In this document: positions 5,901-32,649 of the stretch, piece by piece
How positions within the stretch are numbered: position 1 is the stretch's first letter
How the letters are laid out: each line of letters opens with the position of its first letter
NCBI GenBank assembly: GCA_963555825.3
Contig: CAUVXB020000002.1
Span: 1,920,001-1,984,000 of the forward strand
DNA from: Alphaproteobacteria bacterium
Lineage (GTDB): Bacteria; Pseudomonadota; Alphaproteobacteria; JAAXGF01
DNA: 64,000 nucleotides
Direction: 5' to 3'
Translations under genes and position numbers: made by a program
Notes under the pieces: model-generated
Seen by the model: the letters and a program-made list of their open reading frames with translations, nothing else
Told to the model about the DNA's origin: nothing
Database searches by the model: none

Positions 5901-5921
5901 GATCTACTAACCCAGGGCGCC

Positions 5922-6620
5922 GTGGACCTCGAACTCGTCAGCTTCAAGCTCTGCCCGTTCGTCCAGCGCTCGGTCATCACGCTGAAGCGCAAGGCCGCGC
6001 CGTATTCGATCCGCTACGTCGACCTGGCCGACCCGCCCGACTGGTTCCTCGCCCTGTCGCCGGCCAGGAAGGTGCCGCTGCTCGTCGTCGACGGCACGGA
6101 CGTGGTGTTCGAGTCCGCCGTCATCAACGAGTTCGTCGACGAGGTGACGCCGGGTTGACTGCATCCCGAGGACCCGCTCGCCCGCGCGCTGAACCGAAGC
6201 TGGATCGAGTTCGGCGCGGGCGCGCTCACCGAGACGCTCCACATGACCACGGCCGAGGACGCCAACGGCTTCGCCGCGGTGGTTGCGCGCTTTAACGCCA
6301 CGCTGGCCGCGGTCGAGACGGCGTTCGGCGACGGCCCGTTCTTCAACGGCGCGGATTTCTCGCTGGTCGACGCGGCCTATGCGCCGATCTTCATGCGCGC
6401 GCACTACATCGGCCGCCACGCGTCCGTGCTCGACGCCGCCGCGCTGCCCAAGCTCGCCGCCTGGGGCGCGCGTCTGCTCGCGCTCGACGCGGTGGCGCGA
6501 TCGGTGGTGCCCGACTTCGCCGTGCTCTACGACGACCTCATCCGCCGCCGCCATGGCTACCTGGCGACACTACTGCCCGGCCGCGACGCGCTCGATCCCG
6601 CCGGGATGAGCCGCTATTGA
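5922..6620 (+). pseudogene. Glutathione S-transferase with an in-frame TGA at 6156-6158
   Basis: SFKLCPFVQR, KVPLL and VFESAVINE, then PG*LHPEDP continuing in frame to FSLVDAAYAP. Confidence 0.85.
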
Positions 6621-7106
6621 CCCTTTTGCGCGGCCAGCCGGTCGGCGATCAGCGAGAGCTGTTCGTGCATGATCACCATGCCGTTGAGCGAGGTGATGTT
6701 GTTCGGGTTGTCCTTGGTCGGCACGATGCACACGACGTCGCCGCCGATCACCTCGAGGCCGCGCAGCCCGTCGAGGATGGCGAGCACTTCTTCCATGATG
6801 AAGCCGGTGCCGTCGGGCTGGATGTTGGCCGCCGCCGGCGCCACGGTCGGGTCGAGGGCGTCCATGTCGAAGGTGATGTAGACCGGCGCGTCGCCGACCT
6901 GCTCGCGGATTATCTCGATCGTCCGCTCGACGCCGAGGGTCCGGTATTCCTGCATCTCGATGACGCGGTAGCCGATGTCATAGCTGGCGTCGCGGTAATC
7001 GAGCGAGGCGGTATTGCCGCGGATGCCGATCTGCACGCTGCGCGTCGGTAAGCGTTCGTTCAGGCCGTGGAATCAGCGCGGGCGTTTCCATTCGCCCCGG
7101 CCGATT

Positions 7107-7988
7107 TTAGCGATTGAGGGTGCGTTTCCAATCCCGTCGCAGGGGCCGGAGCCAGACATCCTTTTTAGGCTTGTCGGACTGCCTGTCCCGGTCGTAGCGC
7201 CCGCGCCCCTGGGTGGTCCCGACGCGGGTCCAGCCGGAGGCCCTGTAAACGGCGCCGGTGTAGCGCGGGGTCTCGACGAAGGTCTCGATGAGCACGGGCG
7301 TGGTGTTGTAGCGCTCGGTCCAGTCATCGGGCAGGCGCCGGCGGATGATGGCCAGGATGTGCGAACCCAGGTTGGGGATATTGATCCAGGGCAGGATCAG
7401 GAATCTCGGGTTGTCGACCACGAAGGGAAGGTTCTTCTCGCGCAGTTGCCGTGTCCATCCGATGAAGTTGTCGCGCGGGGCGAGCTTCCACGCGGCGGTG
7501 GAGAAGCCGAGCATGGCGAGCGGCCAGCCGTCGCGGTCGTGGACGGCGTAGCGCATCTGGGCGCCGACCAGGGTCTTGTATCCGAGATAGTGGTAGCGGG
7601 CGACGAACTCGTTCCAGAGCTTGCTCTCCCGGGTGCCGCGCACGACGGGGCGCAGGTCGAGCGGACGGACCTCGTCGAGGGTCGTCGGGGCCGGGAACAG
7701 CGGCGCTTCGGTGTCCGGCCCGAAGACGATCGGCCCGGGCCGGTTCTGCCGTCCCTGCGGCGCCGGCAGGGCGATCAGGCCGTCCCTGTGCATGGCCAGC
7801 ATGGCGACCCTGGCCATCATGTCCTTGAGGCCGCCGTCGGGCTTGAACCAGCCGATGCGCCGGCAGAACTCCTTCGACAGCATATGGCGGTTCAACGGCG
7901 GCGGCCCGGCGATCAGCGCGCGCAGCAGCGCCATTTCCCCGGCGGTGAAGTCGCGGCCGTAATAACGGCACTCGATCGCGCCGGTCAC
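7107..7988 (-). CDS. DUF4338 / DruA-like domain protein (293 aa)
   Basis: Motifs LWNEFVARYHYLGY, RDNFIGW, RFLILPW, PVLIETFVE and GAVYRASGWTRVGTTQGRGRYD. GTGA overlap with the tnpC stop. Confidence 0.85.
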   Translation of the reverse strand: MTGAIECRYYGRDFTAGEMALLRALIAGPPPLNRHMLSKEFCRRIGWFKPDGGLKDMMARVAMLAMHRDGLIALPAPQGRQNRPGPIVFGPDTEAPLFPAPTTLDEVRPLDLRPVVRGTRESKLWNEFVARYHYLGYKTLVGAQMRYAVHDRDGWPLAMLGFSTAAWKLAPRDNFIGWTRQLREKNLPFVVDNPRFLILPWINIPNLGSHILAIIRRRLPDDWTERYNTTPVLIETFVETPRYTGAVYRASGWTRVGTTQGRGRYDRDRQSDKPKKDVWLRPLRRDWKRTLNR

Positions 7989-10624
7989 GCCGGCGCCATG
8001 AGTTCGCGCCTGCGCTCCTCGCTCATCGACCATGGCAGCCACGGCGACAGGTCGTCCGGCGGTTTGCGATCGTTCTCCGCGCACGCTGCGAGCCACGTGT
8101 CCAGCCAGCTCAGGATGTCGATGCCATTCATCGAGAGCGTGCCCACCACCGAGTACATGATCGCCGTGAACCTGGCGCCGTCCTCGCTGTCGGAACCGAA
8201 CGACAGCCGTCGCCCTATGGCCGGACCTCGTAACAATCTTTCGGCGCGATTGTTATCCAGAGGCACCTGCGGGCGGTCGACGAACACGCTCAGCCCTTCG
8301 CGATGGTTCAGCAGCGAGCGCAGCGCCCTGCCCTGGCGCGCCTGGTCCGGCAGGCCGGCCAACTCCCGGGCGGCCTCCGCGAACAGGCCGTCGAGCGCCG
8401 CCTTCAACGCGCCCTGCGCCGCGTCGAACGCCGGCGTCTGGCGCTTGATCACGGGGTCGTAATGAGCCAACCTCGCCTCGTTCAGGCGGTAGACCGACGC
8501 GATCCGCTCGATCCATCCCTGGCACCAGTCCGTCAGTCTCACCTGGCCGGCCGCGCACTCGACAAAATCGCGGCGCATATGGGACCAACAGAATGCAAGG
8601 GTCACTTTGCCCTCGCGAAGGCGAGCGAGTCGCTTGTAGGCGCTATAGCGATCGCAGACGATGACCGTGTCGAGGAGAGCGTCGCCGAACAGCTTCTGCG
8701 CCGCCTCGGCGCTGCGCGAGGGGTCGATATGGAAAGAGACCGCGTCATTGCTGACCGAGACCCACAGCCAGGCGCGGCTCGAGCGGTCTTCCCCGCGAAG
8801 TTCCTGGACGCGCCAGCTGGTCTCGTCGGCATGGCGCAGCGCCGCCTTGTTCTGGTGCGCAAGGATCGCCTCGGCCAGCGGCTCGAGCAGCGGCACGAAC
8901 CGCTTCAGGCTGTCGGCCAGCGTCCCCGGCGAGACCGTCAGCCCTTGGGCGGACATCCACGCGGCAACGCGGTGCACGGGGCGGAAGCAGGCACAGTGCT
9001 CGAACAGGAAGCGTGCCCAGAAGCTGGTCCCGTAGAGCGTCCTGGGGAACAGCCGCGGCACCGGGGGCGCCGACACTTCCATGGGCGACGACGCGCACTC
9101 GCAGGTCCGGCGCCAGCGCGGACGGCGGATCACGCGCTTGTAGGCCTTGACCTCGATCTCGACGAGGGTGGATTCCTCGGCGCCGTTCGGCGCATAGGGC
9201 TGCCCGCACCGGCCGCAGACGCACGCATCCGGCGGCGGGTTGTGCTCTTCGGTGCGCTCATCGAGCCCGGGCCGCTGGGTGCGGCCGTGGCCGGGCGCGC
9301 CGCGCTGCTGGCCGCGCTTGTGTTCCGAGCCCGGCTTGTCCTGCTGCTCGCTCTTGCGGCCGTAGAGCGCCCTCGACAGCACCGCCCCGGTCGCACGAAG
9401 CCTCTCAAGCTGGACTTCCAGCGTCTCGATCCGGTTCCGCGACGTCTTCGCGCCCTTGCGCAGGCGGGCGTTCTCCCGGGACAGCGACTTGATCGTAGCC
9501 TTCTGGCGCCGCGACCTTCGCAGAGCCCTGCGGAGATCGGCGTCTGCAACGGACAGCGACTTCGACAACGTCTTCCTGACCGCTCGAAGCCCGGCAAGCT
9601 CGGCCTCGAGTGCCTTCCTGATCGCGCGAAGCTTGGCAGGCTGAACCTCCAGCGCCGCTTTCCGGGTCTCCAACTTCCGCATGGTCCTGCGCAGACGGCC
9701 GTTGTCCTTGCGCAGCGCCTCGATCGTCGTCTTCTGGCGCCGCGATCGCCTCAACGCCGCGCGCAGTTGAGCAGCCTCGTCGGACGGCAGCTTCGACAGC
9801 GTCGCCCCGGCCGCCCGAAGCTTGGCGAGCCGGGCCTTCAACTTCTCCTTACCGGCTTTGGACACCTCCAGGGCATGGCGCAGCCAGAAAACCTCGTCGG
9901 ACAGCGACCGGGCGCGGGCCTCGGCGTCGCCCAGTATCCTCACCTCCCGGTGGAGCCGAAGGGACTCGCTGGACAGCTTCTTCGCGGTCTCCCTGATGCG
10001 CTCCGTCCTCTCCTTCTCCTGGTCGAGGCGCGTGTTCAGCCGGGCGTTCTCCTTGTCCCGCCGGACCACCTCCTTGTCGAGCCGGCGGAGTTCCGTGCGA
10101 AGCGACCTGACGGTCTCCTTCTGGTCCGGGGAAGGCTCCAGGACGGTGCGCCGCCGGGGCGGAGCGGGCCACGGCCCGGTCGCGCCCTCACGGGCCTTCG
10201 ATGCCGCCAGGGCCTTGCGCAGCCGGGCGTTCTCCTTGCGCAGCGCCCCGGCCGTATCGAAGGCCGACGCGATGCCGGCTTCAGAAAGGAGCGTCTCCAG
10301 GCGCGCCACTTCCGCCTGCAAGGACGGCACGTCCCTTGCCGTGCGGCGGGCTTCCTTCGTCTCTTCGACGGCCTCACTCAGCCTGCGCCGGCAGGCCTTG
10401 AACCGAGACTTCCACGAACCGCCATCGCTGCGGGCGGCCACTTCCGCCCAGCGCAGCTCTTCCGCCCGCGCTTCGGCCGCGTCCGCCCGCGCCCGTTCCC
10501 GCTCACACTGTGACCGCCAGTCGCGCGGCGCGTGCTCCGGCACCGACACGGGGGACAACCGGACCCCGCCATTACCCTCGACCAGCGTCAGGTTGGTGCC
10601 AAAATCCTCGTCCAGAACCACCAT
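7985..10624 (-). CDS. IS66 family transposase TnpC with ~430-aa coiled-coil N-terminal extension (start uncertain)
   Basis: LYGRKSEQ, GAPGHGR, CxCxxCG, HADETSW, CWSHMRRDF and DNNRAERLLR. Confidence 0.9.
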   Translation of the reverse strand: MVVLDEDFGTNLTLVEGNGGVRLSPVSVPEHAPRDWRSQCERERARADAAEARAEELRWAEVAARSDGGSWKSRFKACRRRLSEAVEETKEARRTARDVPSLQAEVARLETLLSEAGIASAFDTAGALRKENARLRKALAASKAREGATGPWPAPPRRRTVLEPSPDQKETVRSLRTELRRLDKEVVRRDKENARLNTRLDQEKERTERIRETAKKLSSESLRLHREVRILGDAEARARSLSDEVFWLRHALEVSKAGKEKLKARLAKLRAAGATLSKLPSDEAAQLRAALRRSRRQKTTIEALRKDNGRLRRTMRKLETRKAALEVQPAKLRAIRKALEAELAGLRAVRKTLSKSLSVADADLRRALRRSRRQKATIKSLSRENARLRKGAKTSRNRIETLEVQLERLRATGAVLSRALYGRKSEQQDKPGSEHKRGQQRGAPGHGRTQRPGLDERTEEHNPPPDACVCGRCGQPYAPNGAEESTLVEIEVKAYKRVIRRPRWRRTCECASSPMEVSAPPVPRLFPRTLYGTSFWARFLFEHCACFRPVHRVAAWMSAQGLTVSPGTLADSLKRFVPLLEPLAEAILAHQNKAALRHADETSWRVQELRGEDRSSRAWLWVSVSNDAVSFHIDPSRSAEAAQKLFGDALLDTVIVCDRYSAYKRLARLREGKVTLAFCWSHMRRDFVECAAGQVRLTDWCQGWIERIASVYRLNEARLAHYDPVIKRQTPAFDAAQGALKAALDGLFAEAARELAGLPDQARQGRALRSLLNHREGLSVFVDRPQVPLDNNRAERLLRGPAIGRRLSFGSDSEDGARFTAIMYSVVGTLSMNGIDILSWLDTWLAACAENDRKPPDDLSPWLPWSMSEERRRELMAPA

Positions 10625-19620: not shown

Positions 19621-21225
19621 ATGCGAACGCCCGGACCGATTATCGGTAGTTACGGATTAGAGAACCACGGCCTGCGCAACCTGGCGGCGGCGCATTGGAA
19701 CTACACCACCGCGGGCCTCTACGAGGAAGCGATCCGGCGCAACGAGGGGCAGATGGCCCACGGCGGCGCGCTGGTCGTACTGACCGGCAAACACACCGGC
19801 CGCTCGGCCAACGACAAATTCATCGTCGAGGAGCCATCGAGCGCCGACAATATCTGGTGGGGCGCGGTCAACAAGCCGCTCTCGATGGAGCGCTACGCCG
19901 CGCTCAAGCAGCGCATGGTGGCCTATCTGCAGGGTCGCGAGGTGTTCGTCCAGGACTGCTTCGCCGGCGCCGATACGCGCCATCGCCTGGCTGTGCGCGT
20001 GGTTACCGAGCACGCCTGGCACAACCTGTTCGCGCGCAACATGTTCATCATCCCCGAGCGCGCCGACTTGCTCGAGTTCGAGCCCGGCCTGACGGTAATC
20101 CAGGCGCCCGACTTCCTGGCCGACCCGGGGCGCGACGGCACCAACAGCCCGGTCTTCGTCATCGTCAACTTCGCCGAGCGCGAGGTGCTGATCGGCGGCA
20201 CGTCGTATGCCGGCGAGATCAAGAAGTCGGTCTTCTCGGTACTCAACTACCTGTTGCCCGCCGCCTCGGTGCTGCCGACGCACTCGTCGGTCAACGTCGG
20301 TCCAGAGGGCGACTCGGCAATCTTCTTCGGCCTCTCGGGTACCGGCAAGACGACGCTGTCGGCCGACCCGAAACGCACGCTAGTCGGCGACGACGAGCAC
20401 GGCTGGGGCGACGACGGCGTGTTCAACTTCGAAGGCGGCTGCTACGCAAAGGTGATCCGGCTGAGCGCCGAAGACGAGCCCGAAATCTACGCCACCACCC
20501 AGCGCTTCGGCACGATCCTCGAGAACGTCGTCATCGACGACAACCGCCAGCTCGACCTCGACGACGCGAGCTACACCGAGAACACCCGGGCGTCGTATCC
20601 GCTCGACTACATTCCCAACGCGTCCGCGACCGGCTGCGCGGGCCAGCCGAAGAACGTCGTCATGCTGACCGCCGACGCGTTCGGCGTGCTGCCGCCGATC
20701 GCCAAGCTCAGCCCCGAGCAGGCGATGTACCACTTCCTGTCGGGCTACACCGCCAAGGTGGCGGGCACCGAGAAGGGCCTCGGCAACGAGCCGCAGGCGA
20801 CATTTTCGACCTGCTTCGGCGCGCCCTTCATGCCGCGCCATCCGTCGGTCTACGCCGAGATGCTCGGCAAACGGATCGAGAGCCACGAGACCAATTGCTG
20901 GCTGGTCAACACCGGTTGGAGCGGCGGCGCCTACGGCGTCGGCAGCCGGATGAAGATCCAATACACCCGCGCGCTGTTGCATGCCGCGCTCGACGGCAGG
21001 CTGGCGACGGCGCCGATGAGCGTCGACCCGAGCTTCGGCCTGACCGTGCCCGACGCCTGCCCCGACGTGCCGAGCGAGGTGCTGCGGCCACGCGACACCT
21101 GGGCCGACAAGCAGGCCTACGACGACACGGCGCGCGACCTGGTCGGCCGTTTCCACGCCAACTTCGACGATTTTGCGCCCTATGTCGACGACGAGGTGAA
21201 GGCCGCGGCGCCGCGCGCGGCTTAG
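19621..21225 (+). CDS. pckA: Phosphoenolpyruvate carboxykinase (ATP)
   Basis: [36 protein letters not shown] and FSTCFGAPF. Confidence 0.97.
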
Positions 21226-21229
21226 CCAA

Positions 21230-21253
21230 TCCATGGTGAGAAATCCGGGCTAG
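21230..21253. repeat. Solo end of the CTAG-bounded repeat family, copy B
   Basis: TCCATGGTGAGAAATCCGGGCTAG fills the pckA-marC gap. Confidence 0.7.
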
Positions 21254-21255
21254 CC

Positions 21256-21885
21256 ATGAGCGAGACGATCATCGCCACGTTCGTCACCTTCGTCGTCGTC
21301 GTCGACCCGATCAGCACTACGCCGCTCTTTGCCGCCCTGACCGCCGAGGCCTCGGCGTCCGAGCGGCGCCGCATCGCGCTGCGCGGCGTGGCCATCGCGA
21401 CCGGCGTATTGATCGCCTTCGCGTTGGGCGGCGAATGGTTGCTGACTGCACTGGGCATCGGCCTGCCCGCCTTCCGCATCGCTGGCGGCATCCTGCTGCT
21501 GCTGCTCGCCATCGACATGGTGATGGCGCGGCAATCGGGCTTGCGCGCGATGACACCCGGCGAGGAGGCGGAAAGCAACCAACGCGCCGACGTCTCGGTA
21601 TTCCCGCTGGCGATCCCGCTGATCGCCGGGCCCGGCGCGCTGACCATGGTGGTGCTGCTGATGGGCGCGGCGGCGGGCGACCTCAGGACTCAGGCGGTGA
21701 TCATCGCCGTGCTCGTCGCCGTGCTGGTCGTCACGCTCGCCTGTCTGCTGCTGGTGAACGGGATCATGCGGCTCTTGGGCGTCACCGGCATCAACGTGGT
21801 GACGCGTGTCTTCGGCATCATCACCGCCGCGCTGGCCGTGTAGTTCATCGTCGACGGCCTGCTCGCGGTGTGGCCGGCGGCCTAG
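21256..21885 (+). pseudogene. marC: MarC family protein with premature TAG at 21841-21843 (may still be a slightly truncated product)
   Basis: VDPI, AFRIAGGILL and VFPLAIPLIAGPGA. ALAV*FIVDGL continues in frame to the TAG at 21885. Confidence 0.8.
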
Positions 21886-22418
21886 CCGACGGATGGCGAA
21901 TCCGGCAAAAAACGCGACGACCAGTTGGCTGGTCCCCGCGCTGTATCGATAGCAGGCGTAGTCGTAACCTGGGCCTATCACAGCACGGAACATCGGGCTC
22001 GGCCTATCCAGATCGCACGCACGATGCTATGCTATGCGTCAATTCAGGTCTATCTGGGTTGTGTCGAGTAAATAGTCGGAACCCTTTCCCGGACGATCGT
22101 GTGAATGAGCCTGTGAACCAACAGATATCGATACCGCTCGAGGAAAGCTCGAGTGGGGATACCGAACGCGGTGGAAACAATGACGCCGCCGCGGTGAGCG
22201 AGGGCGGGAGCACCAAAGCTGAACGCCAGGAGTTCTTTTTGCCGGTCTCGAACTTTGTTTGGTTCTATCCGGAGGAAGTGAAAATAATCAACCATCCGGC
22301 CTTTCAAAGGCTTGGACGCATTAATCAGCTCGGCCAATCGTATTTGGTCTTCAGAGGAGCAACTCACAAGAGAATTGAACACTCTATGGGCACAGTCGAC
22401 ATATTGCAACGTATGATC

Positions 22419-23523
22419 CTTGCCTATCCGGTTAACGCCCATGACCGCTACATGTAGGGTGCCGCCACTCTCCCGAGTAAAGCTCGGCATAGGTTGGAGC
22501 AGAGGTGTCGCCCGCGATGCCGAGCAATGAGCGGAAGGCGTTGAACGGGTAGAACCGCCTGTTGAAGCGGAAGGTGAACTCGTTGAGGTAGGCTTGTAGG
22601 TGCTGGTGGCTAACGCCGTGGTGGATACCGATCAGCCACGTCTTCAGGTTGGCGAAAACCAGATGGATGATCGGCAGGTATTGCTCGGCAACCTCTGGAT
22701 CACCACACTCGGCAACAGCGAAGTGCTCATAGCCGCGCTTACCGAGGCCAGCATAGCCGCTCCAATCGTCAGTAACGATCAGCGATCCCGGCGCGACGGT
22801 GCTCTCGACGAACCCACAGAGCGACTCGGCGCTACGGTCGAGCACGACGGCGAGCCGAACGCGTCCGGCATAGCGTCCGTCTTTCCGGTTGTCGAGCTTG
22901 GTGCCCGGCTTTCGATGACGCACCTCGATGGCACAGGAGACGAGAACCTTGTGGTGAACACCACGGCCTTCCCCACGCGTTCGCCCGCCAACCCAGGTTT
23001 CGTCCACCTCAACATGGTTCTTGGGCTGTCCACCGATCCTGTCTTGGTTGGGCCGCACCATGCCCGAGCGGAGCTTGTGGAGAATTTGAAAGGCCGTCTC
23101 GTAGCGCGAAAGACCAAGTTGCCGCTGAAACTGCACGGCGGACATGCCGGGCGTCTGACTGGCGACCAGATAAGCGGCCCAGAACCAGACGTTCAGCGGA
23201 GTGTGGCTACGCTCCATCACTGTTCCCACCGTCAGCCCGGTGTTCTGGCGGCACTTGCGGCAGCGCAGGACGCCAGGGCGGTTTTCAAAGTGGAACGGCT
23301 CTCCCGCCGTGCCGCAGTGCGGGCAGGCAAAGCCGTCTCCCCAGCGGGCTTTCTCCAGGTAGGCGGCGCAGGCCGCATCATCGGGGAAAAGTCGCTGGAA
23401 CTCGGGTAGCGAATGCGGGAATGGGAGATCGGCGCGGTCGAGAACATCCATGGCGCGCTCCCCTATATCCGGTTTGCGCCCATTCTAGCCCTAGTGGGTG
23501 TGGGTGTAAACCGGATAGGCAAG
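22419..23523 (-). mobile_element. IS1595-family element
   Basis: TIR CTTGCCTATCCGGTT(a/t)AC(g/a)CCC. 8-bp TSD GTATGATC at 22411-22418 and 23524-23531. Confidence 0.95.
22432..23451 (-). CDS. IS1595 family transposase
   Basis: Zn ribbon CPHCG...CRKC, VEVDET, VTDDWSGY and YLNEFTFRFNRR. Confidence 0.95.
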   Translation of the reverse strand: MDVLDRADLPFPHSLPEFQRLFPDDAACAAYLEKARWGDGFACPHCGTAGEPFHFENRPGVLRCRKCRQNTGLTVGTVMERSHTPLNVWFWAAYLVASQTPGMSAVQFQRQLGLSRYETAFQILHKLRSGMVRPNQDRIGGQPKNHVEVDETWVGGRTRGEGRGVHHKVLVSCAIEVRHRKPGTKLDNRKDGRYAGRVRLAVVLDRSAESLCGFVESTVAPGSLIVTDDWSGYAGLGKRGYEHFAVAECGDPEVAEQYLPIIHLVFANLKTWLIGIHHGVSHQHLQAYLNEFTFRFNRRFYPFNAFRSLLGIAGDTSAPTYAELYSGEWRHPTCSGHGR

Positions 23524-24732
23524 GTATGATCGACGCTATACAGCACAACAGCAAGAAGAAGCGGCACCCGAAATGCGCAAAACCGCTTAGCAGGGCCGAA
23601 GAGCGCTTCACACGACTAGGTGCCCTGCTCCACGACATCGGTCACTTGGCCGCAGGCCACACCCTGGAAGACGAGCTCGGCCTGGTCGGCCATCATGACG
23701 CCGACGGACGGCTCGATCACATGTTCGAGTCCGACGATTTCAAGAACGTTGAGGACAATACGCTTGCCGAGCTGATCGACAAGGACTACGAGACATACGT
23801 TCCGAATGACCTCAAGAAACAAGGGATTGCCCCCTCTATCCTGGTGCGATTGCTGATTCGCAAGCCGCCGAAAAACCCGGACGAGGATAAACTGAAAGAA
23901 CAACAGGAGGTTCTGGACAAATCCAGGGATCCGCGACTCAACGTCTGCTCCAAAATGATCGCCGACACAGTCTGCGCCGATCTGCTCGATTATCTCCATA
24001 GGGACTGGTTTCATATTGGAAAACCGAGACCTTTCGACGAGCGAATTTTGCAGTACATGGAGATCCGCAATGTCGAAGAGTCTGCGACCGGCAACGAGAT
24101 GTTGCCGAGTGACGAGTTTGTTATCTCCTTGGGCCAGAGCCCGAAAATCAGGACCGACGGCGTTTCGGCCATTCTTGAGCTTCTCGAGTGGCGCTACCAG
24201 CTTGCCGAGACAGTGTTGTTTCACCGCACGAAACTTTCAGCCGCGGCAATGCTCGACCGTGCTTTGTACGAACTTTGGGGCGGCGATAAGGAGGTGAACA
24301 TCGAGAAGATCGTCCTTCCGCTCAGCGATGAGCAGTTAATCGACGTCTGTGCCGATATCGCGAAGTTCAAATTAAAGAACATAAGAAAGCCTGAATCAGC
24401 AAATTCAAAAGAAAGGATTTCCCAGCTGGAAGCTGCCCACAAACTCCTAACGGCCATTAAGCGAAGAGAATTATTTGCGGACTTGAGGACCTATTCCTAC
24501 GGCCAACTAAATTTGGAGGTCCGTAAGGAAGTGAAGAGACTTTATGGCATTGATGGTGATAAAGAGCCCGACAAAGAGAGCCCAAAGAGCCGCACAAGGG
24601 CTCTGCGCCTTATGGAGGATGATTTCGGGCTTCGAGCTATAACCGAATCTTGTGTACGGCGTTGAAATGAAGGCGGCGTATCCTGGTGATTGTTGATGTC
24701 ACCACTTGAGCTAAGCCAAGGAAGGATACGCC

Positions 24733-25977
24733 ATGAAAGAGAATACCGTTGTTGCTTTTCAAAACCCATCTGATTTTCAGAAAGATCCGTTGACGGAAGT
24801 CCTACAAGCTGGAGCTCGCGAGTTGTTGGCCCAAGCCGTTGAGGCCGAGGTCTCCGTGTTTTTGGGTAGCCATGCGGCGCTTGTTGACGCCGCCGGCCGC
24901 CGCCGGGTTGTCCGCAATGGATATCTGCCGGAACGCTTCATCCAGACCGGGATCGGCCCGGTGAGCGTGCGCCAACCCCGTGTGCGGGACCGGGGGGACG
25001 GCGCCATCCGCTTCACGTCGGCGATCCTGCCGCGCTATCTGCGCCGCGCCAAGAGCCTGGAAGACCTTTTGCCATGGCTGTATCTGAAGGGCATTTCCAC
25101 CGGCGACTTCGGGGAAGCCTTGGCGGCGCTCCTGGGGAGCTCCGCGCCGGGGCTTTCGGCCTCCACGATCACCCGGCTGAAAGAGGTCTGGGGGGTTGAG
25201 GCGGAGCGCTGGCAACGGCGCGACCTCACGGCCAAGCGCTACGTCTATTTCTGGGTGGACGGCATCTATTTCAGCGCCCGCATGGAGGAAGAGAAGCAGT
25301 GCATCCTGGTGATCGTCGGGGCCACGGACAAGGGACAGAAGGAACTGATCGCCATCGCCGACGGCTATCGCGAAAGTGAGCAGTCCTGGCTCGAAGTTCT
25401 GCTCGATCTCAAGCGGCGCGGCCTTGAAATGGGTCCGCAACTGGCGCTCGGCGACGGCGCGCTCGGCTTCTGGAAGGCGCTCCGCCAAGTCTACCCAGGC
25501 GCCCGCGAGCAACGCTGCTGGGTTCACAAGACGGGCAACGTCTTGAACAAGCTGCCCAAGGGTCTGCAAAAGAAAGCCAAGGGGCGCCTGCAAGACATCT
25601 GGATGGCCGAAACCAGGAAGGATGCCGAGAGCGCCTTCGACTTCTTCCTGGAAGCCTACGGGCCGAAGTACGACAAGGCCGCGGCCTGCCTGGCCAAGGA
25701 CCGCGACGTCCTGCTGACGTTCTACGACTTCCCCGCCGAGCACTGGAAGCATGTACGCACGACCAACCCCATCGAGAGCACGTTCGCCACGGTTCGTCTG
25801 CGCACCTACCGGACCAAGGGCTGCCTGTCGCGCAAGACGGCGATGGCCATGGTCTTCAAACTATGCCAGTGCGCTCAGAGAAAATGGAGAAAACTCGATG
25901 GATCGAACCATCTCGCCGAGATCATTCGCGGCGTCAAATTCGTAGATGGAGAACGCCAGGATCGCGCCGCCGCATGA
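24733..25977 (+). CDS. IS256 family transposase
   Basis: RNGYLPER, LYLKGISTGD, WVDGIY, GDGALGF, QRCWVHK and RTTNPIES. Confidence 0.96.
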   Translation: MKENTVVAFQNPSDFQKDPLTEVLQAGARELLAQAVEAEVSVFLGSHAALVDAAGRRRVVRNGYLPERFIQTGIGPVSVRQPRVRDRGDGAIRFTSAILPRYLRRAKSLEDLLPWLYLKGISTGDFGEALAALLGSSAPGLSASTITRLKEVWGVEAERWQRRDLTAKRYVYFWVDGIYFSARMEEEKQCILVIVGATDKGQKELIAIADGYRESEQSWLEVLLDLKRRGLEMGPQLALGDGALGFWKALRQVYPGAREQRCWVHKTGNVLNKLPKGLQKKAKGRLQDIWMAETRKDAESAFDFFLEAYGPKYDKAAACLAKDRDVLLTFYDFPAEHWKHVRTTNPIESTFATVRLRTYRTKGCLSRKTAMAMVFKLCQCAQRKWRKLDGSNHLAEIIRGVKFVDGERQDRAAA

Positions 25978-25997
25978 TCAGCCCATACACAACTTTT

Positions 25998-27798
25998 GAC
26001 GGGGCGGTAAAAAGTTGTTGGCCGATGGCGTGCTTGTACAGGTCTTTGCGGTTCGGTGAAGAATATTTGCCTGTCTCCGCGTTGCTGGTGGATAAAACCT
26101 GATATTACCTACCCTTGGCTTCTCCTTGGCTTCGTTTTTTATGGTGCGATTGCCGCGCAGCGTCGGATATTGAGGCCGAGGGCACGCAGATTGACCACGT
26201 AGCGCATGGCCGGCATGCCGCGAATGCGTAGGTGAGCCAGGTTCATCTGGTACTTTAATCGCGACATGGTCGCTTCTATGCCGGCCCGCCATCTGTAGAC
26301 GTTGCGGAAGGCATCGCTTTGTTCATAAAGCCGGCGCTTTTGGTTGGCAGCCCTGGCCGGGGTATATTGAAAGCGGGAAAATTGGCCGTCACGCTTGGCC
26401 GCCTGCACGGGACATCGCAGTATATCGGGACATTTTTGGCAGATGGAGAGGTCGAAACGGGCCTGCAGCTTGGCTTTGGCGAGCGAGGCTGAAACCGGTT
26501 CGACGTTATTGGGACAGCGCAAGACCAAGCCTTCTTCGTTGAGAGTGAAATCCTCCAACGTCAACCGTCCCGAGACGGCGCCTTTCGGCGGTCGTGCGGG
26601 CGCCACGAGATTGATGTTCTGTTCGCGCGTCAGAGCCATGTTGTCACTGGAACCGTAATGTGAATCACCCAGCATCACCGCCGGCGTCAGCGCGCGCTCG
26701 CTCAGATCATCCAGCGCATCGGCTAAGCGATGGCCGTCATGCACCGTCATCTTGTGGACCTCCACGTGGGTGATGAGGTCCGGTGTCGCGGCAACCGCCT
26801 CGTTACTGACATCTTCACAATAGGTTTCGACGATCTGCGCCATGTATCCTTGACCCTTGTGCGCGTTGTAGCTCGCGTCCGGGTCGGCCGGATTGCCGAC
26901 GGTATCGCACGGCACATCCTTTGGATCTCGAATCGCGGCGCGCGTTGCGTCACGATCGCCATACTCATCATCAACGATCTCGAACTGATCGCGCAGAACC
27001 CTCTCCAGGATCGCAAAACTGGAAAGCTTTGCCGCCGCCGTGTCACGGAATTGCAGCACCAGGGCTAGGAGATACTGACCCGCTTCGCCGAGGCGCCGTT
27101 TTGAAACACTCGGCGCCGTATTCGCGAACGCGCCATTACCCTCGCGATCGACATAGCGGCGGATCACCTCCTTGCTGATCTGCTCGTGCAGACCGGGATG
27201 ATATCGCTCAAGCTCACGGGCAAACTTCGAGATGCTCTCAACAACGATACCAAGTCGTGTCAGCGCCCGCATTGCCGAACGAAGGGCCGTCGAATCCATG
27301 CGTTGGTGGCTGGTATCGACAGAGAACCCCTGCACCAGCCGATCCGTCAAACACCGGAACAGCAATTCATCGAGACCTTGTTCGATAAACAGACGGCGAT
27401 AGTTGCGCAGGGTTTTCTCACAGAAATAGCTGTCCGCTTCGCTGCGCACGTCCAAGGCATAGTGCCACGCCATATTGAAGGCCAGGGCCTCGACGGTCTC
27501 TGCATCGCTCAGATCGTGCAGCTGCTGCAAAAGCAAGACCCCGATGACAACGTGTAGATCCTTCGATGGTCGGCCCATGCGTTCATCAAGGTGACGGCAA
27601 AGATCGTCAACCGGAAGTTCGACAAGCAGATGGTTCCGAAAAACCCCGGCCCAGGATTGCTCCATCAGGCGCCGACGTTTGTCCCCGAAATCGGACCAGC
27701 GATCAAACAATTCCCCAGTCCGTCGGTCGCGTAAAGTAAACATGCACAATTATAATCCAGCCGACTCTCATGAGGAATCGACTTTTTACCGCCCCGTC
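25998..27798 (-). mobile_element. IS1182/IS5-like element nested in the IS256 right TIR
   Basis: TIR (TT)GACGGGGCGGTAAAAAGT at both ends. The duplication reads as AACTTTT (7 bp) or CTT (3 bp), depending on where the ends are placed. Confidence 0.88.
26139..27749 (-). CDS. Transposase, IS1182/IS5-like DDE with C-terminal Cys cluster
   Basis: GRPSK...LLLQQLHDLSD, RMDST, LGDSHYGS and YRWRAGIEATMSRLK. Confidence 0.88.
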   Translation of the reverse strand: MCMFTLRDRRTGELFDRWSDFGDKRRRLMEQSWAGVFRNHLLVELPVDDLCRHLDERMGRPSKDLHVVIGVLLLQQLHDLSDAETVEALAFNMAWHYALDVRSEADSYFCEKTLRNYRRLFIEQGLDELLFRCLTDRLVQGFSVDTSHQRMDSTALRSAMRALTRLGIVVESISKFARELERYHPGLHEQISKEVIRRYVDREGNGAFANTAPSVSKRRLGEAGQYLLALVLQFRDTAAAKLSSFAILERVLRDQFEIVDDEYGDRDATRAAIRDPKDVPCDTVGNPADPDASYNAHKGQGYMAQIVETYCEDVSNEAVAATPDLITHVEVHKMTVHDGHRLADALDDLSERALTPAVMLGDSHYGSSDNMALTREQNINLVAPARPPKGAVSGRLTLEDFTLNEEGLVLRCPNNVEPVSASLAKAKLQARFDLSICQKCPDILRCPVQAAKRDGQFSRFQYTPARAANQKRRLYEQSDAFRNVYRWRAGIEATMSRLKYQMNLAHLRIRGMPAMRYVVNLRALGLNIRRCAAIAP

Positions 27799-28795
27799 AA
27801 CTTTTGACAATAGCTCTCGGGCTTCCGCGCGGAAGCATTGCCATGTATTGCGCCGAGATGAATCCGAAACTTGCCGAGGTCTCCATTGCAGTAGGCGACG
27901 AAGTTGCGCACTTCCACCAATATGAACTGAACAACAACAATGTGCTTTCAGGAGGTCACCTGGGGGCCCAGATTCGCCGGTTCGAGTATCTTTGGCGCGT
28001 CCACTTCTTCGTCGACCGAAAGACAAAGCTCTTCCTGGACGAGAACAATCTGTCGATCACCTTGAACCGCGCGATACGATCGCACGTCTTGGGCGATCTC
28101 CGTGACGAAGACCGCGAGCAGGTCGTCTGGGAACTCGCCAAAACGCTGGCGAACCACAAGACTTCCAAATGGCATGGGAGAGCAGTGAGGGGCCCTTCGT
28201 TGGAAACGGCGGCCAAAGCCGACAAGAGTGTCGCGGAAATTTATCCGACTGGATTGCCGCGCATTCAGTCCTACTTCGAAGACTCCGATCGGAGCAAATG
28301 AAGAGCGAGACCATACAGCGCTACCGCTGTGCCCTTGCGGCCAATGCATCCAGCCTATTCGATCACTCCCCGAATTTGCCGGTGTGTTTTGAGCGAATTT
28401 GTGCCTTTCTGAAGGCCGAGGTCGTTTACAGTGACAAAGTGGCCAGAAACCAGGCGTATCTGCGCAAAGAAATTAAGCGAGGCGAGTTCGTGAAAATTCT
28501 GTTGTCGCCAAGTGGACTCGGATCGCCGTATGAGCGATTTTACATTGCTCACGAACTCGCGCACCTCTTGCTGTGGCGAATTTACAAGGCAGTCCCACAC
28601 GGATCGAGCGAATACTGGCAATTCGAAGACATCTGCGACGAGTTCGCCAGGACCTTGTTGATGCCGGAGGTTGAGGTGCGGCACCGGCTTGCGGCGGAAC
28701 CACGCCACGCTACGACTATGCTAAAGGCGAGTTATCGGCTCGCAAACCTTGCCAAGGCACCTTGGGCGCAGTCAGCCTACCGCATATCGGAATTA

Positions 28796-29970
28796 TACCA
28801 GTGAGCGCCTGAATTGACTCTCGGGATATTCATTGATGGCGGATGATGGCGGATTGTGATTCTATGGTCTCCCACCAGATGTGGGGGATGTCATGGGATC
28901 AGCACTCAAGATACGGGATGATTTGACGCCTTTGGAGCTTCGGCGCTGGGCTCGCGTGGAATCGTACGGTCGAGCGGCGGCGCGGGCCTATGGGATCGCG
29001 AATGCTTTGGAGGAGATGCCCCGGGCTGATGCCGCGCGGCTTGCGGGGATGGATCGCCAAACGCTTCGCGACGCGGTTGTTCGTTACAATGCAAAGGGAT
29101 TGGAGGGGCTTCACGACCGTCCAAAGGGCTACTCGCCGCGGCGGCTGACGGCAGACGAGGAAGCGGCGCTGGCGGCGGTCATCATCGCCGGGCCGGAGCC
29201 TGAGCGCGACGGGGTTTGCGCCTGGACCCGGGCCGATCTGTGCCGCTGGCTGGAGGAGCGCTTCGCCAAGACCTACCACCCCTCGAGCATGACCCGGGTT
29301 CTACGGCGGATGGGATTTTCCCGCCAGAAGGCGCGCCCGAGCCACCCGCGAAGGGACGCCGAAGCGCAGGAGCGCTTCAAAAAAGGGGGCTTCGCGACAT
29401 CCTGAAGGCGACCGCCGCGGCGCATCCCGACAAGCGCCTACAGCTGTGGTTTCAGGATGAAGCGCGCGTCGGCAACAAGGGCCGGGTGTGTCACCGGTGG
29501 TGGCGCAGGGGCGAGCGTGCCCCCGGGACGCGTCAAATCGGCTACCAGTGGGCCTACATCTTCTCCGCCGTGCGCCCGGACACCGGCGACGACGTCACCC
29601 TGGTGATGCCGAGCGTCAACGCCAAGGTCATGGACCTGTTTCTCGCACACTTCGCCGATACCCTGGACCAGGATGCGCACGCCGTCATGATGTGCGACGG
29701 CGCCGGTTGGCACGACGAGCGCGCCCTCACCGTCCCCGACAACGTCACCTTGGCGCTGTTGCCGCCTTACAGTCCCGAACTCAACCCCGTCGAGCGGGTT
29801 TGGCTCTACCTACGCGAACGCTTCCTATCGCTCCGCGTCCTCGACGACACCGAGGCCATCATCGACGCCTGTTGCCAAGCATGGATCGACCTCATCGCAG
29901 AACCGGATCGTATGCGAACCCTCTGCGCCTATCCATGGATCATGAAGGTGATTTCATAGGCTCACTGGTA
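28796..29970 (+). mobile_element. IS630-family element 1
   Basis: Ends TACCAGTGAGC...GCTCACTGGTA. Flanking TTA is duplicated at 28793-28795 and 29971-29973. Confidence 0.92.
28893..29959 (+). CDS. IS630 transposase, two ORFs joined by a probable -1 frameshift at A6G5 (29379-29389)
   Basis: HTH ORF, then WFQDEARVG, DGAGWH and LPPYSPELNPVE in the -1 frame. Confidence 0.9.
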
Positions 29971-30090
29971 TTAGAGCACCGAGCGAGCTTTTTTCGCATA
30001 AAGCCGCAGGGCGATGGCCGATTGAAGATTCTGGTTTCCACGTTACCGAGACACAAGGAATCAGGCCGCTTCATCTCTCTCGGCACCTCA

Positions 30091-31264
30091 TACCGACTCC
30101 GCCTGAATGATTCGGTTGCGACGGATTCCCGTTGGAATCGGAAAGGGTTAGGATCCGTAGTCATGATTCGCGGAGGGGCGGGACATGGCGCATGTCGAGG
30201 AACATTTGCAGCTTTCTGAGTTGGAGGGACGGTATCGCTCGGCGTCGGAGGCGACGGAGGCGCGGCACTTCCAGGTGATCTGGCTTTTGGCCAAAGGCCA
30301 TACGGTTCGCGAAGTGTCGGAGATGACGAGTTTCGGCCAACGCTGGCTCGAACAATTGCTTTCTCGCTACAACAAGCTCGGCCCGTCGTCGCTGGGCGAT
30401 CGTCGACGCTCGAACGGCTCCGAGGCGACGATCCTGAAGCCGGAAGTCCTGGCGGTGTTGAAAGAGCGCCTGAAAAAGCCGCCGGCGGACGGCGGCTTGT
30501 GGTCTGGGCCGAAGGTGGCGGCTTGGATGGCGGGCGAACTGGGCTTGGAGACGGTGGCGCCGCAACGGGGCTGGGAGGCGCTGAAGGCAGTCGAGTGGAG
30601 TTTGCAGGTGCCCAGGCCGAACAACCCCGGGGCGGCGAGCGAGGAAGAACGCCAGGCGTTTAAAAAAAACTTCACCGCCTGGTCGCGGAAGAAGCCGAGC
30701 GCCACCCCGGCACGCCGATCGAAGTCTTCGCCAGCGACGAACACCGGCTCGGTCTGAAGCCATTGGCCCGGCGCTGCTGGGCGCCGCGCGGGATGCGCCC
30801 GGTGGCGCTCGGCCACCACCGCTTCAAATGGCTCTACGTCACCGCCCTCGTCTCGCCGACCAGCGGAGAGACCTTTTGGTACATCTCCAATTGTGTCTCC
30901 AAGCCATTCTTCGAGAAGCTGCTCGCCCTCTTCGCCCGCGAGGCCGGCGCTGGGCAGAGCCGCATCATCATCCTGGTGATCGACGGCGCCGGGTGGCACA
31001 CGGCGCCGAACCTCACGGTGCCGGAAGGCCTCCACCTCGTCTACTTGCCGCCCTATACGCCCCAGCTGCAACCGGCCGAATGTCTCTGGCCCGTACTCGA
31101 CGAGCCGGTCGCAAACAGACACTTCGAGACCATCGAGGAACTCGACGCCGTCGTCGCCCGGCGCTGCCTCACTCTCGATGCCAATCCCGAACTCTTCAAG
31201 GGGCGTATCGACTTCCACTGGTGGCCCAAAACCATCTATCCGAACTGATCAGCCGGATGCAGTA
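30091..31264 (+). mobile_element. IS630-family element 2
   Basis: Imperfect TIR TACCGACTCCGCCTGA / TCAGCCGGATGCAGTA. TCA is duplicated at 30088-30090 and 31265-31267. Confidence 0.9.
30185..31248 (+). CDS. IS630 transposase with probable -1 frameshift at TTTAAAAAAAAC (~30659-30670)
   Basis: HTH ORF, then DEHRLG, DGAGWH and LPPYTPQLQPAE in the -1 frame. Confidence 0.88.
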
Positions 31265-31495
31265 TCACTTCATGAGGCAATGGTTGCCCTGCTACGGGAA
31301 CCTCCTGCTAGGCTCACTAAAGAAAACATGCACGCCATCAGTCCCGATATTATGGCAAGTTCAAACGTCCCCTCCTTCACAAACTGCCGCGAATGTGTAG
31401 CCGTAAAGGGACCGCACGGGGACATTCGCCTGACGATAACTACGGGCTAGGACAGCTTTAGCATGGTGTCCGCGACGGGATACTGAAAACTCTCT

Positions 31496-31533
31496 ATTTA
31501 AACGGCCAATCGACATTTAAACGGCCAATCGAC
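31496..31533. repeat. Perfect 19-bp tandem duplication near the right border of the island
   Basis: ATTTAAACGGCCAATCGAC twice. Confidence 0.9.
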
Positions 31534-31577
31534 GTGCGTTTGCCTGTACGAGTTCAAGTTGTCGCCCTAGTCGGACT

Positions 31578-31751
31578 CTAGCAGTTGTGCGCCTTGAGGC
31601 TGCCGATAATGCGCGCGCCGATCTCGGCGATCGCCTGGCCACACTCAACGGCCGTCAGACCCTCGGGCAGGCCGGCGATGGCGGCGCAGCGCTCGTCCTC
31701 GGCGAGATACGAATACAGGACGACCGCCTTCGAGATGCTGGCCTGCGCCAT
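31578..31751 (-). CDS. Small hypothetical protein (57 aa), below the ORF-track cutoff
   Basis: GAGGAGG SD. MAQASISKAVVLYSYLAEDERCAAIAGLPEGLTAVECGQAIAEIGARIIGSLKAHNC. GC-rich third codon positions. Confidence 0.6.
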   Translation of the reverse strand: MAQASISKAVVLYSYLAEDERCAAIAGLPEGLTAVECGQAIAEIGARIIGSLKAHNC

Positions 31752-31928
31752 CGCCGCGACTGCCTCCTCGGCGCTGCCAGCAGCTTGAGCGCGTTACATC
31801 AGCCCGCGCCAGTCTTATTGGGACAAGAGCGGCCGGTCGCGACGAGAGGGCCGGACCGCCCGGCGATTCGCCCTGTCGGGTGCCGACAGTGTAGCGCGTC
31901 ACGCGCCCGCGTCCGGCGGCGCGTATCG

Positions 31929-32336
31929 TTACGCCGGCGTGTCGCTCGCCGCGTGCTGCGGCAGGCCGTCGGTGATCTCGTAGTAGTCGCCCTTGTCGGC
32001 GACGAAGATATGCCGGGCCAGCTTGAGACCGGTCGGCGCATCGAGGCTGCCGGCCAGGATCGCCACGCGGTCCTTGGTGGCCGGCTGCCACAAGACGATC
32101 GAGCCGCATTCGCCGCAGAAACCGCGCCGCGCCGTCGCCGACGCACGGTACCATTTCAGCCCGCGGTCCTCGGTCAGTGTGAAGCGCTCGGCGGTGATGC
32201 TCGTCGTCGCGTAGAGGTGGCCGCTCTGGCGCCGGCACTGGCCGCAATGACAGGCGGTGATATCGGCCAAAGGCCCGCGCGCCTCGTAGCGCACCGCCCC
32301 GCACAGGCAGCCGCCGGTATGTGTCTCGTCGGTCAT
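31929..32336 (-). CDS. GFA/CENP-V family protein
   Basis: GGCLCGAVRY, CHCGQCRR and RGFCGECGS. Confidence 0.92.
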   Translation of the reverse strand: MTDETHTGGCLCGAVRYEARGPLADITACHCGQCRRQSGHLYATTSITAERFTLTEDRGLKWYRASATARRGFCGECGSIVLWQPATKDRVAILAGSLDAPTGLKLARHIFVADKGDYYEITDGLPQHAASDTPA

Positions 32337-32346
32337 GGGGCTCTCC

Positions 32347-32649
32347 TTAGGTCGTAATATCGCTGTCGGTCACCGCGAGCATCAGCAGCTTCCCGATGAT
32401 CGAGATTTCGCTCTGGTCGAGCATCATGCCGCCCTCGATGTTGCGCGGCTTGTGCTTGAGAAAACGGCCGAACGCGGCGGCGAGCAACAGGGCTTCGTCG
32501 CGGGTGAAGAACTTGGGCGCCTTGGGGACCTCGAGCTTTTCGCTGACCGCTGGGGCGTCGCGCCCCTCCCAGTAGAGTTTCCACGCCTCGGCGAGGACGC
32601 GAAGTTCGTCGATCGAAAACTGCAGCATCGCGGAGCTTGGACGCACCAT
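32347..32649 (-). CDS. Hypothetical protein downstream of polA
   Basis: Abuts the polA stop. Host-like codon usage. Confidence 0.6.
   Translation of the reverse strand: MVRPSSAMLQFSIDELRVLAEAWKLYWEGRDAPAVSEKLEVPKAPKFFTRDEALLLAAAFGRFLKHKPRNIEGGMMLDQSEISIIGKLLMLAVTDSDITT

Follow-up and report, generated by a model that had tools for sequence, protein, structure and literature searches.

The stretch of DNA considered here is a 64,000-nt window (positions 1,920,001 to 1,984,000 of contig CAUVXB020000002.1, assembly GCA_963555825.3) from an alphaproteobacterium of the GTDB lineage JAAXGF01. Between positions 22101 and 31450 it carries a low-GC (guanine plus cytosine) two-gene operon that was horizontally acquired and has been destroyed by insertion sequences (IS). 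The first open reading frame (ORF1) encodes a SAMHD1-like HD phosphohydrolase, and the second (ORF2) an IrrE/PprI/CapP-type zinc metallopeptidase, both identified from sequence and structural models. In many phyla the two genes occur as a self-contained unit whose members move and diverge in concert, and this unit has the appearance of a defence or stress module not yet described. Both components are of known kinds; their fixed pairing is what appears new. The reading preferred here, with a probability of roughly 0.4, is that the peptidase acts on the HD protein, controlling hydrolysis of deoxynucleoside triphosphates (dNTPs) in response to single-stranded DNA (ssDNA) or damage signals. A stronger version is more doubtful: it would have an IrrE/CapP-type ssDNA sensor, lacking CapH, directly cleave and activate a SAMHD1-like dNTPase, forming a new two-gene dNTP-depletion immune system found in at least eight phyla.

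In the window genome the operon consists of six low-GC coding pieces with five IS between them. Once each IS is removed together with one copy of its target-site duplication (TSD), the coordinate-joined frames have 632 and 266 codons with a terminal stop only, and the stop of ORF1 overlaps the start of ORF2 as ATGA at 28298-28301. GC content is 0.530 in ORF1 and 0.543 in ORF2, as compared with 0.653 in the genome and 0.67-0.69 in the flanking genes, which are those for MarC (21256-21843) and GFA (31929-32336), with phosphoenolpyruvate carboxykinase and PolA further out. The original prediction, made from the letters of the window alone, had described two such stop-free frames, their ATGA overlap, and a lower-GC island between marC and a GFA gene. 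Scripted joins, intact homologues and contigs of other public runs bear out the frames, and the overlap, the GC difference and both flanking genes were found as described.

Intact homologues provide independent evidence for the joins. P0008 (628 aa, 81% identical to ORF1) and P0010 (633 aa, 65% identical) run unbroken over both ORF1 junctions (...DILQRMI|DAI... and ...DDFGL-P-RGSIAMYC... in P0008), and the proline codon split by the second IS is intact in both. P0007 (527 aa, nearly identical) has the second and third ORF1 pieces in one chain and starts at an ATG within the duplication made by the first IS. For ORF2, P0270 (265 aa, 98% identical over the 166-aa first piece of the window ORF2) is unbroken over both junctions (...RISEL|EHRASF... 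and ...SLGTS|LHEAM...), as are P0271, P0272 and P0273, each also of 265 aa. The frame of ORF1 proposed from position 22101 stands, although its start may instead be the GTG at 22113, the point where P0008 begins.

Linkage and distribution of the pair

A pattern scan with one genome per species gave 20 loci. These come from Acidobacteriota, Alphaproteobacteria, a "delta proteobacterium", Omnitrophota, Chloroflexota, Calditrichota, Verrucomicrobiota, Actinomycetota and Armatimonadota, at least eight phyla. In 17 of the 20 the HD gene is followed immediately by a homologue of ORF2, and in most loci the two genes have a start/stop overlap or a gap of at most 30 nt. At two other loci (L010 and L021) the contig ends at or just after the HD gene. 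An all-against-all comparison of ORFs of at least 70 aa showed no third conserved gene among the 20 loci, which have just the HD and peptidase genes in common. In the window, ORFs of the same minimum size between MarC and GFA include no helix-turn-helix (HTH) repressor gene. A reverse scan of metagenomes with the peptidase motif yielded 22 loci, and the linkage was read from the best ones: an HD gene is upstream in four (L029, L031, L032 and L037), and the second-best peptidase match (L030) has only 404 nt of upstream sequence. The other 17 are weaker matches to Pfam Peptidase_M78 (M78), with E>=3e-8. Operon linkage of the homologues elsewhere, which had been proposed as a check, is therefore seen at 17 genome loci and four metagenome loci.

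Pairwise distances of the HD proteins and of the peptidases are correlated over 18 pairs (r 0.84; 0 of 2000 permutations as high), a value to which shared descent contributes. The peptidases are the more divergent, with a mean identity of 24% as compared with 42% for the HD proteins. Distribution is patchy. No relatives were found in 60 related genomes, and in 400 other genomes of the class no full-length member was present; the matches there, three in number and weak, were to ordinary COG1078 proteins. In a quick tree the window HD gene groups with alphaproteobacterial L003, Hoeflea marina (L007) and Bradyrhizobium stylosanthis (P0097), with 97 in the Shimodaira-Hasegawa-like approximate likelihood ratio test (SH-aLRT). 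Intact pairs in named organisms are those of Hoeflea marina DSM 16791 (L007, positions 5845-8651) and B. stylosanthis.

A translationally coupled two-gene operon in which one partner evolves faster than the other is also a feature that might be expected of a toxin-antitoxin-like pair. The HD protein would then be a constitutively toxic dNTPase that the peptidase neutralises by binding or continuous degradation, and toxicity would be freed when the supply of peptidase stops. The peptidase domain also resembles RmrA, the antitoxin of RosmerTA, and it is the HD gene that was inactivated first in the window genome. However, the peptidase gene is downstream of the putative toxin and its product has no DNA-binding domain for autoregulation. 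It also keeps the whole IrrE/CapP sensor architecture, which would be needless for a plain antitoxin. This arrangement is considered improbable.

Predicted nature of the two proteins

ORF1, at about 630 aa, is by sequence and modelled fold a member of the SAMHD1/EF1143-type (COG1078) HD phosphohydrolases. With the 367-aa middle piece as query, 954 proteins were retrieved at E<=0.001 from a set of 5.8 billion proteins, mostly 600-645 aa in length and labelled at source "HD superfamily phosphohydrolase" or not at all; in a 50% representative library the same piece matched 1055 clusters. The ESM Atlas gave HD and M78 family labels only. Across 90 sequences the metal ligands H90, H137, D138 and D253 (P0008 numbering) are invariant, along with many flanking residues. 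This H..HD..D set and the motifs QRL..QLG, HxRxEHS, LLHDxGH and DxxDYxxRD are all present in the window ORF1 pieces.

The similarity to characterised enzymes is clear in profiles and structure. A profile search of PDB detected EF1143 (2o6i) with E 2.8e-15 and SAMHD1 at about 1e-13, with the metal-site motifs conserved between the ORF1 family and EF1143 in the profile alignment. Comparison with three ordinary COG1078 proteins by hhalign gave a probability of 99.85 and E 1e-30 over residues 36-429. The AlphaFold model of P0008 (predicted local distance difference test score, pLDDT, 91.1; predicted template-modelling score, pTM, 0.90; residues 1-27 disordered) superposes on EF1143 chain 2o6i_B with Z 25.3 and a root-mean-square deviation (rmsd) of 4.2 (402 of 430 residues aligned, model 24-556). 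On human SAMHD1 (4bzc_D) the values are Z 24.3 and rmsd 4.4, with 413 of 470 residues aligned and model residues 33-568 placed on SAMHD1 113-599. Foldseek gave E about 1e-15. The ORF1 family thus has the catalytic core, C-terminal lobe, H..HD..D ligands and flanking motifs of SAMHD1 and EF1143; in contrast to those enzymes, it is paired with a peptidase gene. Motifs, profile matches, hhalign and fold comparison all agree with the SAMHD1/COG1078 assignment made in the original prediction.

General family models recognise these proteins poorly. Pfam HD gives 17-29 bits around its cut-off of 22, HD_assoc_2 matches a few members, and scores for both are mostly under the cut-off. NCBIfam dGTPase models give 13-17 bits against cut-offs of 152-439. 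The anti-phage dGTPase (PADLOC dGTPase; NF041026) is also an HD enzyme and has weak local similarity to the family at the first motifs (E 1e-4 to 0.03). As an identity for ORF1 it was rejected: the PADLOC dGTPase and NF041026/NF003701 models score 12-20 bits over about 80-100 residues against cut-offs of 383-400, and the two belong to different HD families. The anti-phage enzyme is a single-gene system with no protease, whereas the ORF1 family has a linked peptidase. Depletion of dNTPs, the known activity there, may likewise be proposed for the ORF1 family.

When compared with bacterial COG1078 homologues, the ORF1 family is about 150-190 residues longer. The family-specific parts are a disordered N-terminal tail (about 30 residues), two insertions at roughly residues 165-240 and 376-405, and the last 55 or so residues. 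A long C-terminal extension had been suggested as a regulatory or cleavage target. A profile of the C-terminal 157 residues found no PDB sequence at E<=10, and fold comparison later matched this region to the C-terminal lobe of SAMHD1. Since the P0008 model superposes on the C-terminal lobe of SAMHD1 and EF1143 to about residue 570 of 628, the supposed extension is largely a normal lobe, and that claim is not supported.

The dNTPase assignment of the ORF1 family is a prediction from homology. HD domains are chemically diverse, and the protein might instead be a nuclease, an NTPase or a hydrolase of signalling nucleotides, the pair then working by other chemistry. The large insertions, the invariant extra residues E149, E151 and H158 and an identity of only 16-21% to SAMHD1 and EF1143 could be taken in this sense. 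Yet two characterised dNTPases match the model at Z 24-25 throughout the catalytic core and C-terminal lobe, and the metal-site motifs are shared with EF1143, so that a different chemistry seems very unlikely.

ORF2 is, from sequence and model comparison, a complete three-domain IrrE/PprI/CapP-type zinc metallopeptidase of 265 aa with no HTH domain. Pfam Peptidase_M78 matches its first piece with E 1.6e-5 (25.1 bits against a cut-off of 22). P0270 alone reaches 20.5 bits, under the cut-off, but all 20 aligned members of the ORF2 family match at E<=0.01, the best at 2.6e-9. In these 20 sequences R80, H85, E86, H89 and E110, which include the HExxH plus glutamate zinc site, are invariant. At residue 88, P0270, a cluster representative, has HELPH where the window and other close homologues have HELAH; the change may have arisen by drift in a peptidase left without its partner.

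The model of P0270 (pLDDT 93.7) contains, by fold comparison, a peptidase domain, a helical linker and a GAF-like domain in one chain. It superposes on PprI (8slm) with Z 18.7 (232 of 248 residues aligned, model 3-265), on IrrE (3dte) with Z 17.9 and on CapP (7t5t) with Z 16.4 (219 of 278 aligned, model 11-265); weaker structural matches are to GAF and related sensor domains. It is this end-to-end superposition, together with the M78 match, that shows ORF2 to be a complete three-domain protein with no HTH, in line with the ImmA/IrrE signature first noticed in it. One candidate, the RosmerTA antitoxin RmrA (HTH plus peptidase, about 360-400 aa), was rejected: only positions ~190-290 of the RmrA model match ORF2, which is shorter and has no HTH.

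CapP is the closest relative in the PADLOC collection. The capP model is the best PADLOC match in 10 of 10 peptidases (E 1e-7 to 4e-17, model positions about 6-158 of 242). Alignment of the ORF2 family by hhalign with nine true CapP sequences, which the PADLOC model had picked out in genomes of the same class, gave a probability of 99.1 and E 7e-19 over residues 16-177. The loop of the CapP cysteine switch, whose cysteine is invariant in the nine, falls opposite a gap in the ORF2 family. IrrE also lacks the switch, according to 10.64898/2026.05.16.725639, and some CapP proteins are described without this loop in 10.1101/2022.04.27.489752. In local hhalign the C-terminal ~90 residues of ORF2 show no similarity to the C-terminal region of CapP (probability 0.07); nevertheless the fold is common to both.

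These relationships set ORF2 apart from the systems in which its relatives work. In the IrrE/PprI-DdrO system of Deinococcus and in ImmA-ImmR, PprI and IrrE are the best three-domain structural matches and share the HExxH plus glutamate site. ORF2 differs in having no conserved adjacent HTH repressor gene and an enzyme as partner, and identity is 15-18%. In the CapP+CapH module of cyclic oligonucleotide-based antiphage signalling systems (CBASS) and other defence operons, CapP has the same three-domain fold. ORF2 differs from it in lacking CapH (among the 20 loci, ORFs of at least 70 aa), the cysteine-switch loop and detectable sequence similarity in the C-terminal domain, and its gene is downstream of its partner and overlaps it.

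Since regulators of the CapP+CapH kind are described as accompanying many kinds of defence operon (10.1101/2022.04.27.489752; 10.64898/2026.05.16.725639) and ORF2 is a clear CapP homologue, the peptidase might act as CapP does, on an unlinked or overlooked small repressor, with the HD gene as regulated cargo. Such transcriptional control is quite improbable here: among ORFs of at least 70 aa, the HD and peptidase genes are the only ones shared by the 20 loci, and the peptidase gene follows the HD gene in translational coupling rather than forming a separate regulator cassette.

Proposed function

Under the preferred reading, in which the peptidase acts on the HD protein, the peptidase would be the sensor in intact carriers. 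Its trigger, as for IrrE and CapP, would be ssDNA or a cue resembling DNA damage that arises from replication of phage or other foreign DNA. In those proteins the domains are reported to form a groove that binds ssDNA between the peptidase and GAF domains, and the activated proteases cleave HTH repressors (10.64898/2026.05.16.725639; 10.1101/2022.04.27.489752). The putative substrate here would be the HD protein itself and not a repressor, with cleavage most plausibly in its disordered N-terminal tail or its family-specific C-terminal tail. Once cleaved, the HD protein would begin to hydrolyse dNTPs, and DNA replication would be starved.

That dNTP depletion is gated by the protease is plausible. 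Linked protease-effector (zymogen) modules, in which a protease frees a latent effector by site-specific cleavage, are described as widespread (PMC12642450), and the logic proposed here is the same. CapP-related systems of such a kind are expected by the authors of 10.64898/2026.05.16.725639. The main text of PMC12642450 contains no mention of ImmA, M78, IrrE, "HD domain", metallopeptidase or phosphohydrolase. A complex prediction for the cognate pair P0010 and P0273, each with an alignment, gave a score of 0.00 and speaks neither for nor against binding.

Several observations weigh against a role of this kind in defence. With the anti-phage dGTPase models, the HD proteins score far under the curated thresholds. 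At one locus (L006) the HD gene is fragmented and truncated, and no peptidase match occurs in the 740 nt before the contig end. No relative was found in PLSDB plasmids or GenBank phages by tblastn with the 367-aa piece, or in IMG/VR by a pattern scan, in what were limited searches. By Pfam, housekeeping genes make up most of the 136 ORFs that neighbour the 20 loci, although these counts have no background rate, and 7 of 10 large neighbours scanned singly have no PADLOC match. A class II ribonucleotide reductase gene adjoins the HD gene in L019 and L021 and is nearby in L015 (Ribonuc_red_lgC/TSCPD; 2427-5834 in L019, 3659-5722 in L021, directly upstream of the HD gene, and 10717-11685 in L015). 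The arrangement may hint at a function in dNTP pools, and it fits ordinary dNTP homeostasis as well as defence.

The reductase is one reason to consider that an IrrE-like sensor adjusts a SAMHD1-like dNTPase for the cell's own repair and replication under DNA damage or stress, with no antiviral role. The predominance of housekeeping neighbours points the same way. IrrE/PprI is described as a DNA-damage regulator (10.1101/2022.04.27.489752), and the best structural match of ORF2 is PprI/IrrE, not CapP. On the other hand, L019 and L021 are both Terriglobia (L015 is from Chloroflexota) and may represent one event. The very patchy distribution (0 of 400 other genomes of the class, yet at least eight phyla) and the low-GC island also speak against it, and some loci are flanked by restriction-modification (R-M), prokaryotic Argonaute (pAgo) or AbiE genes. 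A purely cellular role of this sort is accordingly rather unlikely, though not negligibly so.

The defence-related neighbours are as follows. PADLOC matches at E<=1e-10 among the 136 neighbouring ORFs include two type II methyltransferases, a type II restriction enzyme, type I R-M subunits, a pAgo with SIR2-APAZ, AbiEi and PDC-S46. Three of the 10 large neighbours are PADLOC-positive: a type I restriction enzyme (L020), a helicase (L005) and an AAA ATPase (L013). Because the neighbour counts have no background rate, enrichment in defence islands is not claimed for the pair.

No match of the combination to a named system was found in the models and literature searched, in line with the candidate new module of the original prediction. 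No system model in PADLOC v2 and no NCBIfam entry matches the HD plus M78 pair. Neither the literature searched nor the main texts of PMC12642450, PMC13069673 and PMC7159879 yielded a description of it, although supplementary tables of PMC12642450 and PMC13069673 may list it. An IrrE/CapP-type protease with no repressor partner was likewise not found in PADLOC v2, NCBIfam or the literature searched. One paper lists HD and M78 as separate toxin-antitoxin groups of S. aureus; it is irrelevant to the pair.

The component families have known roles in immunity and stress, dNTP depletion in the case of SAMHD1 and dGTPases and ssDNA sensing in that of IrrE and CapP. If the protease does act on the enzyme, the role of sensors of the ImmA/IrrE/CapP type would extend beyond transcriptional switching to the post-translational control of an effector. 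The pair would provide a bacterial case of regulated nucleotide depletion of the SAMHD1 type, and its peptidase would be the first sensor of the ImmA/IrrE family to have an enzyme rather than a repressor as substrate.

Decay of the locus in the window genome

The locus in the window genome is a decaying pseudogene, a point absent from the original prediction, and the module is dead. It is an example of stepwise decay of an accessory module by IS, and ordinary annotation reports mere fragments of it. The ends of each IS were set by BLAST of the element against the window's own genome, where many copies at 99-100% identity are present, and families were assigned from Pfam.

ORF1 begins with a plus-strand piece at 22101-22418 (codons 1-106, with GTG starts at 22101 or 22113) that holds the disordered N-terminus and the motifs FQRLGRINQLG and RGATHKRIEHS. 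IS1 (22419-23524, minus strand), of the IS1595 family, follows; its transposase occupies 22432-23451 on the minus strand, and the second copy of its TSD, TATGATC, is at 23525-23531. Its insertion point falls between the EHS and HD motifs and cuts the HD domain in two. The next piece of ORF1 (23532-24633, plus strand; 367 codons plus 1 nt) has LLHDIGH, CADLLDYLHRD and the remaining HD core. IS2, of the IS256/Mutator family, is at 24634-26000 and 27801-27816, with its transposase at 24733-25977 on the plus strand and the second copy of a 9-nt TSD at 27817-27825. Nested in its right end is IS3 (25996-27800), whose DDE_Tnp_1_6/DUF772 transposase lies at 26139-27749 on the minus strand. The last ORF1 piece (27826-28301, plus strand) supplies the final 158 codons and the stop, that is, the C-terminal lobe and tail; its TGA overlaps the ATG of ORF2.

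ORF2 starts with a plus-strand piece at 28298-28795 (codons 1-166) carrying the zinc-peptidase domain, with HELAH and E110, and the helical linker. IS4 (28796-29970, plus strand) belongs to the IS630 family, has HTH and DDE_3 frames at 28881-29405 and 29216-29959, and has a TTA duplication whose second copy extends to 29973. After codons 167-205 (29974-30090, plus strand), which encode the first strands of the GAF-like domain, comes IS5 (30091-31264, plus strand), also of the IS630 family, with frames at 30185-30757 and 30763-31248 and a TCA duplication whose second copy extends to 31267. Codons 206-265 and the stop (31268-31450, plus strand) complete the GAF-like domain. Both IS630-family elements are thus flanked by 3-bp duplications, not by plain TA; with the 3-bp reading the frame is restored, in agreement with the intact homologue P0270.

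Contigs of four other public runs were compared with window positions 22000-31600. Three of the four insertion sites are bridged at the predicted bases. Contigs of runs X8 and X12 join 24624 to 27817 (3192 nt skipped, the IS2/IS3 site) and 28791 to 29970 (1178 nt, the IS4 site), and those of X2, X8 and X12 join 30087 to 31265 (1177 nt, the IS5 site). Run X2 keeps the IS2 and IS4 borders, and its contigs enter both ends of IS1 by 24-25 nt. No contig among the listed joints bridges IS1, although contigs cannot prove the absence of an IS1-free allele; the IS1 insertion is common to the window genome and a related population. From these joints the most economical order of insertion is IS1, then IS2/IS3 and IS4, then IS5.

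A search for an empty site was uninformative, as a MarC match at E<=1e-20 is absent from the 12 other genomes of the family. Rfam gave no match in 21000-32500, no transfer RNA gene was found in 15000-40000, and promoter and terminator scans of the locus gave nothing useful. About 50 nt downstream of the ORF2 stop, at 31497-31534, is a tandem pair of the 18-nt unit TTTAAACGGCCAATCGAC, 19 nt from start to start, which has no other occurrence in the genome.

Traces of the locus are also seen in other data. An 861-nt contig of metatranscriptome run X18 (window 22000-22445) contains the first ORF1 piece and 27 nt of IS1; this is possibly DNA carry-over. Some stretches of the native genes have no coverage in X18, which carries no weight either way. 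The native stretch 27826-28795 (970 nt) is nearly whole in runs of several studies, some labelled sponge metagenome, and IS content varies between the runs that carry it.

The genome as a whole is rich in these elements. Full copies number 9 for IS1, 35 for IS2, 31 for IS3, 67 for IS4 and 14 for IS5, and the 156 full and 48 partial copies together make up 3.9% of the 6.04-Mb genome. The ~2.7 kb of native operon sequence has received four direct insertions and one nested insertion, and the 10-kb bin with the locus is among the four densest in IS in the genome.

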